Below the pieces are notes generated by a model. The model worked only from the letters and a program-made list of their open reading frames with translations, was not told the DNA's origin and did no database searches. 32,000 nt of DNA from Candidatus Jordarchaeales archaeon (GTDB lineage Archaea; Asgardarchaeota; Jordiarchaeia; Jordiarchaeales; Freyrarchaeaceae): assembly GCA_038858525.1 (NCBI GenBank), contig JAWCFL010000001.1, forward strand, positions 90,001 through 122,000, in the 5' to 3' direction. Shown here one piece after another: positions 2,769 to 5,468 of this stretch; position 1 is the stretch's first letter; each line of letters opens with the position of its first letter. Position numbers and translations under genes: made by a program.

Positions 2769-3878
2769 TCAGTATATGTCTTCTTTTGATTCTTCTTCTT
2801 TTTCCTTTGTTAATTCTTTTACCGATATTCTCTTTAGTAAAAGATTTCCCATCGAATTTTCTACTTTTATTATATATTCTCCATCGTTATCCACTCGTGG
2901 AAAGACGAAAACCAAGCTTTCTAGAGGGAACCATAGTTCCACGTTTGTTGACCATGAATATGTCTCAAAGATGTCCTGTATATGACTTATAGTTATTTTT
3001 ATGTCTTCAAGTCCTTTTTCAGAAGAGTTTTTAACCATTATCTTAAGCTTCTTTCCTTGCTCCATTAGTTCTATGCCTTCTAGCTCAACGGGGCTCTCAC
3101 GCATTAGCTCAACTTGCCTAGTTTTTAGTGGGCTTTTCTCGGAAAGGGTGACGCTTCTAATCGGGGTCTGTTCACCATAGAGATGACTGAGGAGAAAATA
3201 AACAAGACTTTTCTGTTTCTCTGCATCAAATTGAAGAGAGTCTATAACTTTTCGGGAAACTTCAGGTATCACTGAGACGCATATGTCCTCCAGCATAGAG
3301 ACTATATGCTTGCTTTCTTCGATGAGTGACTTATCTCCCTCGCTTTTGACGGGTTTAATTTTAGCTTCTTCAGCTAAAATTAGGAGGTAGAGGTTATCAT
3401 AGAACTGCTTCTGTATCTTTTCTCTTAACGCTCTTAGGAGCTCCTCACCAAGCGGCTTTGCTATAGATGTAGGAGCGCTCACTATGAGCACAAAGACCTC
3501 TTCTGCCTCCTCATCTATTCCCGCTCTCTCTTTTTTCCTAGAGGACCTGGCGGTGAACTTTGTTCCAGAGTATACTTTTCCGCCAAACTCCATGTCAACA
3601 TGATCCACGTTTCCTTTGAACTCGTTAACGCCAAGCCACCAAACAGGGTGACGTTGGAGAAGTCTGATGACGGATTTATTGCCTTTCAATTCGTGAGGTA
3701 TTGTGAAAAGAATTAGATGCCCTTTTGCTTCATGAAAGCAACACAGGTATATTTCAATAAACTCAGAGAAAGCGGTTATCTTTGAATTAGCGTATGTACT
3801 ACTGTTCTCAACTTCGCTCTTTTGCATAAAAGACTCTGCTATTTCATTACTGGGATTCCTAGACGGATGCTCAACCAT
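2769..3878 (-). CDS. Hypothetical protein with a longin/uDENN-like N-terminal domain and a C-terminal beta-sandwich
   Basis: 369-aa ORF with SD; IYLCCFHEAKGHLILFTIP resembles the uDENN FD-x3-GP-x5-P start; predicted beta-beta-alpha-beta-beta-beta-alpha-alpha order; C-terminal LKIMVKNSSEKGLEDIKITI is Ig/appendage-like. CDS is secure, fold call is inference. Confidence 0.75.
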   Translation of the reverse strand: MVEHPSRNPSNEIAESFMQKSEVENSSTYANSKITAFSEFIEIYLCCFHEAKGHLILFTIPHELKGNKSVIRLLQRHPVWWLGVNEFKGNVDHVDMEFGGKVYSGTKFTARSSRKKERAGIDEEAEEVFVLIVSAPTSIAKPLGEELLRALREKIQKQFYDNLYLLILAEEAKIKPVKSEGDKSLIEESKHIVSMLEDICVSVIPEVSRKVIDSLQFDAEKQKSLVYFLLSHLYGEQTPIRSVTLSEKSPLKTRQVELMRESPVELEGIELMEQGKKLKIMVKNSSEKGLEDIKITISHIQDIFETYSWSTNVELWFPLESLVFVFPRVDNDGEYIIKVENSMGNLLLKRISVKELTKEKEEESKEDIY

Positions 3879-3897: not shown

Positions 3898-4353
3898 TCA
3901 ATACCTTTCGCTTTCGAGCTGGGGGGAGACAGGCTGCAACTCTATGTTGTAGTAACGGGCGTACCTTTTAAATCCGTTAACCCACTTCTTGCTTATTACT
4001 CCGATAAGCTTTCCGTTTTTGTCTACCACACCCACGCGCTTTATCTTGGTCTTCTCGAACAAATCCTTGATTTCGTCTATTGAAGCGTCTTCGCGTACCG
4101 TGATTATGTCGCGAAACATTATATCTTTAGCCTTATACTTTCTAGGGTCTTCCTCCTTAGCGATAAGTCGGAATATTGCTCCATCTGTTATTATGCCCAC
4201 AACGTTGCCTTCATGGTTGACTACAAAAACGCTACTCACCCAGTTGTCAATCATAAGCTGGGCGACTCTAGACAAGGAATCATCTTCGTTACACGTAACA
4301 ATTTCTCTCATGGCAATATCCAAAATGGAAAATGAACGATTTTCTGACTGCAA
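3898..4353 (-). CDS. CBS-domain pair protein
   Basis: Two CBS repeats (IAMREIVTCNEDDSLSRVAQLM...VVGIIT; DIMFRDIITVREDASIDEI...LIGVIS). Start moved to TTG at 4353 behind SD AGGGGG. Confidence 0.9.
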   Translation of the reverse strand: MQSENRSFSILDIAMREIVTCNEDDSLSRVAQLMIDNWVSSVFVVNHEGNVVGIITDGAIFRLIAKEEDPRKYKAKDIMFRDIITVREDASIDEIKDLFEKTKIKRVGVVDKNGKLIGVISKKWVNGFKRYARYYNIELQPVSPQLESERY

Positions 4354-4603
4354 TATTATAAACCCCCTAATACCTAAATTTTGATAAAATATAATTTTTA
4401 CCGTGCCACGAGTTCTAAACAGGGAAAGAAAAACGCACTTTAATATTCCACGACCATACAATTCGATGTATTTTTCATTTGCTCCCCCTCCTTTTAGAGG
4501 CCTCTCAGGGGGCTTTCGCCACTAACTTATGTCAGACATTTAGTTTCGAACCGCCATTCCTCTCCTCATTTAAGAAGAGAGGAACTTTAGAAAATTAGAA
4601 TAG

Positions 4604-4739
4604 TGCCTCGGCCGGGATTTGAATTCCCTTAGCTTTTTAAACAGCTACCCGGGTCAAGGGGTCGAGTGGGCAGGTTGTAAGCCTTGAGCCCCTTATGCTT
4701 GGCCGTTACAGCCTCTAAAGGTGACTACACCACCGAGGC
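4604..4739 (-). tRNA. tRNA-Glu(CTC) with three non-canonical introns: 16/17 (4706-4722), 34/35 (4666-4685), 53/54 (4624-4647)
   Basis: Removing 17+20+24 nt leaves a 75-nt cloverleaf GCCTCGG TG GTGT AGTCCGGCCAA GCAT A AGGGG CTCTCGA CCCCT TGAC CCGGG TTCAAAT CCCGG CCGAGGC A; BHB-like junctions; CCA not encoded. Confidence 0.92.
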
Positions 4740-4766
4740 ACTCGAATACTCTCGGTAAAAGTGCAG

Positions 4767-4780
4767 TTTATTAACCTTTC
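4767..4780 (-). promoter_or_regulatory. BRE/TATA promoter of tRNA-Glu
   Basis: Minus strand GAAAGG-TTAATAAA ending 28 nt upstream of the tRNA 5' end. Confidence 0.65.
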
Positions 4781-4823
4781 GCACACTATAAGAAATGGAG
4801 GGATTCGTAGGGGGCGCGCCGTA

Positions 4824-5468
4824 TTGAAAGTTACTTTTTCCCCTGTAGCTTTATCTAAGGTTTTCTACGTAGCACTTAACAACAGAGATGTTGAAGTAGC
4901 AGGTTTTCTCGTAGGGCGAGTTAGTGGAGATCACGTTTTGGTGACTGATAGTTTATGGGTGGGTGGCAGAGGGGGAAGAGTCCATGTGGAACTTGACTTT
5001 GATGCCATGGCTAAGGTTGCTGGAAAGCTAGAGGAAGATGGGGGAGACGAAGTTATAGTTGGATGGTGGCACAGTCACCCGGGGATGGGGGCAGATTTTA
5101 TGTCGGCAACAGATATTAAAACGCAATGTGTGTGGCAAGCGCTTTTTCCTTATGCCATAGCGCTTATCGTTGATCCTGCGGAATACGAGAAGAGAGGAAT
5201 TAATAAGAGGAGCTGCAGTCTTTATAAGGCGGTAAGTAGTGGATATGAAGCAATTCCCTTTGATACGATGTTAGACTTAAATGAGCTGGTCTCTGCAGGT
5301 TTGAGGTCTATTAAAAGAGCTTTAGAAGGGGAGGTTAAATTTACCTTAACGCAAAAAGAAAAGGTAATTTACAAGGAGAGAATTATCGAGAAAACTGGTG
5401 AAATAATTGCGCTCGCTCTCTCAATTTGGACAGTAATACTTGCTCTCCTTTTCTGGGTTCTTTCTTAA
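4824..5468 (+). CDS. JAB1/MPN+ (JAMM) metalloprotease, Rpn11/CSN5-like, with a C-terminal transmembrane anchor
   Basis: EVAGFLVG (catalytic Glu), VGWWHSHPGMGADFMSATD, ALIVDP; last 21 aa hydrophobic. The GTG start at 4761 overlaps the tRNA promoter, so TTG at 4824 is preferred. Confidence 0.9.
   Translation: MKVTFSPVALSKVFYVALNNRDVEVAGFLVGRVSGDHVLVTDSLWVGGRGGRVHVELDFDAMAKVAGKLEEDGGDEVIVGWWHSHPGMGADFMSATDIKTQCVWQALFPYAIALIVDPAEYEKRGINKRSCSLYKAVSSGYEAIPFDTMLDLNELVSAGLRSIKRALEGEVKFTLTQKEKVIYKERIIEKTGEIIALALSIWTVILALLFWVLS

Follow-up and report, generated by a model that had tools for sequence, protein, structure and literature searches.

We analysed a 32,000-nucleotide stretch of the genome of a Candidatus Jordarchaeales archaeon (GenBank assembly GCA_038858525.1, contig JAWCFL010000001.1, positions 90,001 to 122,000; hereafter the window) and found that one of its genes encodes an Rpn11-like metalloprotease of the JAB/MPN+ (JAMM) class with a predicted transmembrane (TM) helix at its extreme C-terminus. 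We consider it likely that this protein, here called the window JAB, is an anchored, cytoplasm-facing zinc isopeptidase of the Rpn11 type that strips the organism's own ubiquitin off conjugates at the surface of the membrane, probably on the inner side of the cell membrane. The fold, the catalytic motif, the hydrophobic tail, the conservation among relatives and the gene content of the genome that point to this function are described below, and the coordinates are given in Table 1.

The open reading frame ends with the stop codon at 5466-5468 and is the one plus-strand frame ending at 5468; translation from the TTG at 4824 gives a product of 214 amino acids (aa). This TTG is the likely start because the N-termini of the homologues (M/V-K/R-V-x-x-S-P) align there, and a GTG at 4761, which would add 21 aa, was disfavoured. 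The Pfam scan matched JAB (PF01398) to residues 2-107 (E = 1.3e-12; 48 bits against a cut-off of 22.5) and Prok-JAB (PF14464) more weakly (E = 4e-7); JAB was the one domain type detected, with nothing N-terminal to the MPN core. The MPN domain starts at residue 1-2, and the alignment to Rpn11 chains starts at their residues 27-30. A link to EMC8/9 (UPF0172) was rejected, as its score of 18.1 bits (cut-off 24.4) reflects general MPN likeness; EMC8/9 lack the catalytic motif. In the window JAB the catalytic set is complete, with E24 followed by H83-S-H85-PGMGADFM-S94-AT-D97, and E24, H83, H85, S94 and D97 were invariant in the 13 aligned homologues. The original prediction had described an Rpn11/CSN5-like JAMM with an intact active site and an unusually long spacing between H85 and S94, and both descriptions were borne out.

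The spacing between the second histidine and the serine is eight residues (x8) in the window JAB and seven (x7) in Rpn11, AMSH and the Rpn11 homologue of Candidatus Caldiarchaeum subterraneum (CsRpn11), and the HMMER alignment placed a one-residue gap in CsRpn11 exactly opposite the x8 loop. Among the relatives, both spacings were found in one family (f12; f, g, G, L and C numbers are our handles for families, genera, genomes, loci and contigs). Within its genus g13 (loci L058-L075 comprise g13 and g21), some species have the x7 form HTHPGLGV-FMS and one has the x8 form HTHPGLGAGFMS, while the sister genus has x8; HTHPGMGAHFMS is another x8 form among these loci, and all these relatives keep the tail anchor despite the switching. 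The extra residue is loop variation, given that both spacings occur side by side in one genus, and x8 was rejected as a marker of a deep clade on the same observation.

The TM segment was assigned by Kyte-Doolittle hydropathy in a 19-residue window, which reached its maximum of 2.65 at residues 194-212 (next-best segment, 1.31), in agreement with the single-pass C-terminal anchor that had been proposed. Hydropathy revealed no N-terminal hydrophobic or signal-like segment. With a sole TM segment at residues 194-212 of 214 and no signal peptide by this measure, the protein has the layout of the tail-anchored class, whose members have a single TM segment within about 30 residues of the C-terminus and the rest of the chain N-terminal to it in the cytosol. 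The linker before the anchor (residues 168-193) is little conserved, and its length differs between homologues.

Homologues were searched in a database of 5.8 billion proteins, in 1.84 billion cluster representatives (profile search, best 150) and in 151 Asgard genomes. The first search returned a terminal hydrophobic helix in 7/7 homologues, including an Odinarchaeial one at 31-37% identity; the named homologues came from Candidatus Freyarchaeota and Odinarchaeia. Among the best 150 cluster representatives, 45 carried a terminal anchor, 24 of them with x8 spacing and 21 with x7 (the latter mostly 277-302 aa long), and nine had x8 spacing without an anchor. These clusters originated from Hodarchaeota, Baldrarchaeia, Odinarchaeota, Heimdallarchaeum and Helarchaeota, with 'Mov34/MPN/PAD-1 family protein' as the sole annotation. 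In the Asgard genomes, 29/30 of the best full-length loci ended in a TM helix (tail hydropathy 2.15-3.25), and the anchored loci spanned at least six families (f1, f2, f3, f4, f12 and f15). A tail kept this widely is more than a chance feature. In several lineages the anchored JAB was the sole Rpn11-like match, also in genomes that are closed or nearly so, among them G011 (98% complete in one contig) and G022. Across homologues the tail consists of 19-21 unbroken apolar residues (hydropathy 2.65-3.2), is flanked by charges and lies 0-4 residues from the terminus; its sequence is poorly conserved, and its hydrophobicity and position are kept.

Table 1. Features of the window JAB gene, with positions counted from the first nucleotide of the window.
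Feature	Positions	Strand	Basis
Whole gene: tail-anchored Rpn11-like JAB/MPN+ metalloprotease, 214 aa + stop, TTG start	4824..5468	+	Open reading frame, Pfam, homologue N-termini
Putative cytoplasmic MPN+ catalytic domain, residues 1-167, with insertion 1 (Ins-1, ~44-58) and C-terminal helix 152-167	4824..5324	+	AlphaFold2 (AF2), Foldseek, profile
Codon of Glu24, the catalytic general base in the JAMM motif	4893..4895	+	Invariant in 13 homologues; in contact with the C-terminal tail of ubiquitin in the modelled complex
JAMM zinc motif H83-S-H85-x8-S94-x2-D97 (HSHPGMGADFMSATD)	5070..5114	+	Sequence, alignment
Charged low-confidence linker, residues 168-193	5325..5402	+	Predicted local distance difference test (pLDDT) <50 at 170-190
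Predicted C-terminal TM tail anchor, residues 194-212 IIALALSIWTVILALLFWV + terminal LS	5403..5465	+	Kyte-Doolittle, AF2 helix, homologues

Soluble and otherwise modified forms were also found. Genomes of family f2 (G006-G010; for example loci L018, L021 and L024) hold a soluble x7 JAB (HSHPGFGCFLS) together with an unlinked anchored JAB, and the soluble gene is in every case divergently oriented to a gene for a ubiquitin-conjugating enzyme (E2) some 1.5 kb away. The orthologue in G002, a genome of the same genus as the source (95% complete, 8 contigs; L040:7203-7802, minus strand), ends in the polybasic ...KKLYRRKDTIFKERKRRKIIT and has no TM helix. An independent metagenomic protein, P0018, 69% identical to it, also has a polybasic end, ...RLKKLFRWRRHFRGKRRGELVA. 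Because the two agree, the polybasic-tailed sub-lineage is real; its tail may take the place of the TM helix by binding membranes or nucleic acids electrostatically. The expectation that homologues keep the hydrophobic tail thus held for the seven database homologues and nearly all of the best loci, and failed for this sister lineage. Helarchaeial relatives with x8 spacing, about 290 aa long, have a soluble C-terminal extension instead of the anchor. In quick maximum-likelihood trees of the MPN domain the backbone was not resolved.

The AF2 model, built with 13 homologues, had a mean pLDDT of 80.6 (about 85-95 over residues 1-160) and consisted of an MPN core (1-150), a helix (152-167), a low-confidence linker (170-190) and a long terminal helix (184-213; pLDDT ~90). 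In a Foldseek search of the PDB, CsRpn11 structures (6FJU, 6FNN, 6FNO) took ranks 1-5 (30-38% identity), and Rpn11 of yeast and human and CSN5 came next; the probability was 1.00 to Rpn11/CSN5 structures. A profile of the window JAB family searched against the PDB gave the same picture, with CsRpn11 (6FJU) at 2.2e-38, Rpn11 at ~1e-23, CSN5 at 3e-19, BRCC36 and AMSH at ~1e-11 (AMSH about 3e-11) and archaeal JAMM1 at ~1e-5. By these sequence and fold comparisons, the window JAB is closer to Rpn11/CsRpn11 than to the Prok-JAB desampylases.

CsRpn11 (6FJU, 6FJV, 6FNN, 6FNO; Fuchs et al. 2018, PMC6043591) is the best match in both sequence and fold. Like the window JAB, it is about 200 aa long, has an MPN+ core with Ins-1 and without insertion 2 (Ins-2), ends in a short C-terminal helical part and belongs to an archaeal eukaryote-like system of ubiquitin, activating enzyme (E1) and E2. 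It is a proven deubiquitinase (DUB) that cuts after Gly-Gly in the ubiquitin precursor and in conjugates, does not process small archaeal modifier proteins (SAMPs), and is soluble, with no membrane association mentioned (PMC6043591). The two differ in gene location (CsRpn11 within the ubiquitin operon, the window JAB apart from it), in spacing (x7 against x8), in the predicted TM anchor, which the window JAB alone of the two has, and in the ubiquitin that they meet, which is a precursor to be matured for CsRpn11 and needs no maturation for the window JAB. Eukaryotic Rpn11/PSMD14 and CSN5 share the catalytic motif and, in the model, the Ins-1 grip on the ubiquitin C-terminus. Unlike them, the window JAB is without the assembly helices of the proteasome lid or COP9 signalosome (CSN), Ins-2 and the N-terminal helix, and appears to be membrane-anchored rather than complex-bound. 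An insertion of Ins-2 length is absent from its alignment and AF2 model, as in CsRpn11. With one PF01398 match in the genome, no MPN- partner (Rpn8/CSN6) was found, and the C-terminus is a predicted TM helix instead of lid-bundle helices, so that the protein does not qualify as Rpn11 proper.

Solved structures exist in which CsRpn11, Rpn11 or AMSH-LP is bound to ubiquitin. We predicted the complex of JAB residues 1-170 with zinc and the organism's own ubiquitin, and the results showed an ipSAE of 0.84, compared with 0.01 for the best control; the mark used was reached by 58/80 solved complexes and 2/110 mismatched pairs. The runs agreed in at least 98% of contacts, with a partner pLDDT of at least 90. 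Ubiquitin residues 70-78 contacted E24, H83, H85, S94 and D97, and the ubiquitin beta-sheet face contacted JAB residues 53-68 and 99-111. This outcome shows a likeness to the solved relatives and room for the x8 loop within the canonical binding mode, rather than binding itself.

The source genome (2.09 Mb, 63 contigs, 92.7% complete) contains further parts of a ubiquitin system. An operon of ubiquitin, E2 and E1 lies at the very start of contig C53 (L011:1-1703), whose edge truncates the ubiquitin gene; a 99%-identical full-length ubiquitin of 78 aa is in the database, and the relatives of this ubiquitin are named Jordarchaeales. Together with the Freyarchaeota and Odinarchaeia homologues of the window JAB, these names place the source in the Jord/Frey lineage of the Asgard archaea. 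Here and in most relatives ubiquitin ends ...TGG-stop, and since it already ends in GG, no trimming of a precursor is needed in this organism. Snf7 (ESCRT-III) and Vps25 (ESCRT-II) of the endosomal sorting complexes that are required for transport (ESCRT) are present, as is a full-length Get3/ArsA homologue (330 bits). The check for ubiquitin and ESCRT genes that accompanied the original prediction therefore came out positive, for ubiquitin, E2, E1, ESCRT-II and ESCRT-III alike. The profile search returned the window JAB as the single PF01398 match. A minimal JAMM of 134 aa (H-S-H-x7-S-x2-D), of the usual archaeal desampylase type, is encoded on contig C14. Near it lies a gene for a 248-aa protein with a PH/GLUE/GRAM-looking N-terminus and a C-terminal CxxC...CxxC zinc ribbon (L012:2425-3171, minus strand). 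Any genes upstream of the ubiquitin gene, such as a RING-type ligase or another JAB, fall beyond the assembled contig.

Of the 151 Asgard genomes, 108 had an Rpn11-like JAB with or without an anchor and 109 had E2, and the two were distributed alike at the level of families. Both were lacking in all or nearly all genomes of f6, f7 (0/26), f11, f17 (0/5), f19, f22 and f26; in f19 they occurred in 1/7 genomes, the same genome for both. The three genomes that were discordant for JAB and E2 were 69-82% complete. Since relatives are not independent, the co-occurrence is a descriptive tally.

We propose the following course of events. The N-terminal part of about 190 residues, having no signal sequence, would fold in the cytoplasm, and the last ~20 residues would be inserted into the membrane after translation, with the Get3/ArsA homologue as the likely insertion chaperone. 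A flexible linker of about 25 residues would then carry the catalytic domain and limit its reach. The domain would bind the 78-residue ubiquitin via the Ins-1 segment and helix 2, with the C-terminal ...TGG threaded into the zinc site (E24, H83, H85, S94, D97), and cut after Gly-Gly. Because the ubiquitin gene already ends in GG, the main job would be removal of ubiquitin from conjugates, not maturation of a precursor; and because the sole Rpn11-type enzyme of the genome is anchored, removal and recycling of ubiquitin would be concentrated at the membrane. The likeliest substrates would be ubiquitinated membrane or membrane-proximal proteins, possibly including ESCRT cargo; we infer action on membrane proteins from the tether alone.

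Several observations weigh against this proposal. Hydropathy is the sole basis of the TM call. The anchor is not indispensable, as polybasic or soluble tails replace the TM helix in some relatives, and a single clade of anchored proteins was rejected by the approximately unbiased (AU) test (p = 6.8e-5; 46 rows, including five tail-less x8 rows), from which it follows that soluble and anchored forms interconverted several times. A second, soluble JAB could be missing from the assembly, because the genome is incomplete and the ubiquitin operon is cut, and the f2 genomes have both kinds. The pairing of the window JAB with ubiquitin is a textbook one with solved relatives (6FNN, 5U4P), so that the success of the complex prediction may reflect likeness only. 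The window JAB shows no linkage to ubiquitin or ESCRT genes, and none of its neighbours is kept in five more distant genomes or conserved beyond the genus.

A narrower version of the proposed membrane-surface deubiquitination is an ESCRT-coupled role like that of AMSH, in which ubiquitin would be stripped from cargo just before ESCRT-III scission. The presence of Snf7 and Vps25, the fixation of the enzyme at the membrane, where ESCRT acts, and the published links between Asgard ubiquitin and ESCRT genes (PMC9192718; preprint 10.1101/2023.07.25.550441) are in its favour. However, the window JAB has neither an MIT domain nor Ins-2, no linkage to ESCRT genes was seen in the source genome or in seven others examined, and a permanent anchor, unlike AMSH, needs no ESCRT recruitment. 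The similarity to the AMSH profile is also much weaker than that to Rpn11. AMSH, AMSH-LP and Sst2 resemble the window JAB as isopeptidases of the JAMM class that work at a membrane, which is a functional analogy only: AMSH is soluble and recruited via its MIT domain and STAM, and its zinc-binding Ins-2 gives specificity for K63 linkages, all of which is missing in the window JAB. The parallel with endosomal AMSH drawn in the original prediction did not hold up on these grounds, its match (~3e-11) being far weaker than those of CsRpn11 (2e-38) and Rpn11 (1e-23), and we regard an ESCRT-coupled role as possible but rather unlikely.

HvJAMM1 and PfJAMM1 are archaeal desampylases, and they (PfJAMM1, PDB 5LD9; both Prok-JAB, PF14464) share the superfamily and the metal site with the window JAB. 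The window JAB might accordingly be imagined as a desampylase or general metallopeptidase whose substrate is a modifier of the SAMP/ThiS/MoaD/Urm1 type or a non-ubiquitin substrate at the membrane, and a second ThiF-type E1 on contig C4 as well as weak NCBIfam matches to the haloarchaeal desampylase (NF041370, 29.8 bits) and Cap3 (22 bits) would agree with such a substrate. These scores are, however, far below the cut-offs of 130 bits (desampylase) and 200 bits (Cap3), and the separate 134-aa x7 JAMM is available for that role. The minimal JAMM1/JAMM2 proteins differ from the window JAB in being about 130-140 aa long, lacking Ins-1 and acting on SAMPs, and the nearest characterised relative, CsRpn11, rejects SAMPs. 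The distribution of the Rpn11-like JAB follows E2, which SAMP systems lack, and the complex model with ubiquitin passes. Desampylase activity, which had been offered alongside deubiquitination, is thereby made less likely, and we judge a SAMP-type or non-ubiquitin substrate very unlikely. That the hydrophobic C-terminal helix is instead a protein-protein interaction helix of a soluble complex is highly improbable: eukaryotic Rpn11 and CSN5 do assemble via bundles of C-terminal helices (established; mentioned in PMC6043591) and some relatives have non-hydrophobic tails, but 19-21 charge-flanked apolar residues with a hydropathy of 2.65-3.2 are typical of a TM anchor and not of a bundle helix, the tail sequence drifts while hydrophobicity and position stay, and the genome has no Rpn8-like MPN partner.

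On contig C1 the gene for the window JAB is flanked by a CBS-domain gene and trpS, and the ubiquitin operon lies on C53; the JAB is unlinked to the ubiquitin operon in G011, G022 and G036 as well. Synteny (CBS-domain gene, a gene for a 369-aa protein, trpS, S10, MTAP) was found within the genus (G002) and partly within the family (G004) only. The 369-aa protein (2769-3878, minus strand) belongs to no Pfam or NCBIfam family and is 68-69% identical in two relatives, in which its gene also adjoins the same CBS-domain gene (3898-4461 in the window), so that the two form a conserved pair. In three other Asgard families, two genes for proteins of about 260 and 400 aa, with no TM segment and no Pfam or NCBIfam family, lie less than 3 kb from the anchored JAB (L044:7618-9637, minus strand; L043:9225-11203, minus strand; L045:2843-4852, plus strand). 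At L044 the order on one strand is 417 aa, 260 aa and JAB, with overlaps or 12-nt spacing. This pair was rejected as a partner of the window JAB, as tblastn gave no match in the source genome. ARAGORN and Rfam found no RNA genes in the window, and Rfam returned nothing in 4462-4823 even at E<=1, although an archaeal tRNA with several introns could escape such searches. A scan for promoters and terminators of the bacterial type gave nothing above shuffled sequences; such models are not applicable to archaea.

Among membrane-inserted DUBs of eukaryotes, the ubiquitin-specific proteases (USPs) USP19 and USP30 are tail-anchored at the endoplasmic reticulum and held in the mitochondrial outer membrane by an N-terminal TM segment, respectively. 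As far as we are aware, eukaryotes have no known DUB of the JAMM class that carries a TM anchor. USP19 and USP30 resemble the window JAB in carrying a cytosol-facing DUB domain on a single TM helix, and USP19 is truly tail-anchored; they differ in being eukaryotic cysteine proteases of the USP fold that are not homologous to it. By this analogy, the design of the window JAB would be closer in principle to the TM-anchored USPs than to AMSH. Asgard surveys have tallied genes of the JAB/MPN kind (PMC9192718, PMC10936438), and a JAB gene was reported in a Borrarchaeial ubiquitin cluster (preprint 10.1101/2023.07.25.550441). Full-text literature searches, which cover few subscription journals, gave no paper describing an Asgard JAB/MPN protein with a TM anchor. 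Rpn11-like JAMM deubiquitinases as such are already known; a tail anchor on one of them appears, from its predicted architecture, to be a new layout.

It is conceivable, though we hold it to be quite improbable, that ubiquitin was first attached and removed at the membrane together with ESCRT sorting, and that soluble enzymes (the operon-linked Asgard JABs, Rpn11, CSN5 and AMSH) arose by loss or replacement of the anchor; the polybasic-tailed and Helarchaeial relatives would be live examples of such replacement. Whatever their history, the TM tail, the polybasic tail and the soluble C-terminal domain provide natural controls for the purpose of the anchor, and the 170-residue domain, the 78-residue ubiquitin, E2 and E1 form a simple set for biochemistry. 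With the window JAB, the few known membrane-inserted DUBs, all others being eukaryotic and of the USP class, would gain a member of the JAMM class. The ubiquitin and ESCRT machineries of eukaryotes have their closest prokaryotic relatives in Asgard archaea, and the sole Rpn11-type deubiquitinase of many Asgard lineages appears to be fixed in the membrane, suggesting that ubiquitin removal, at least, may be a reaction of the membrane surface in these organisms.

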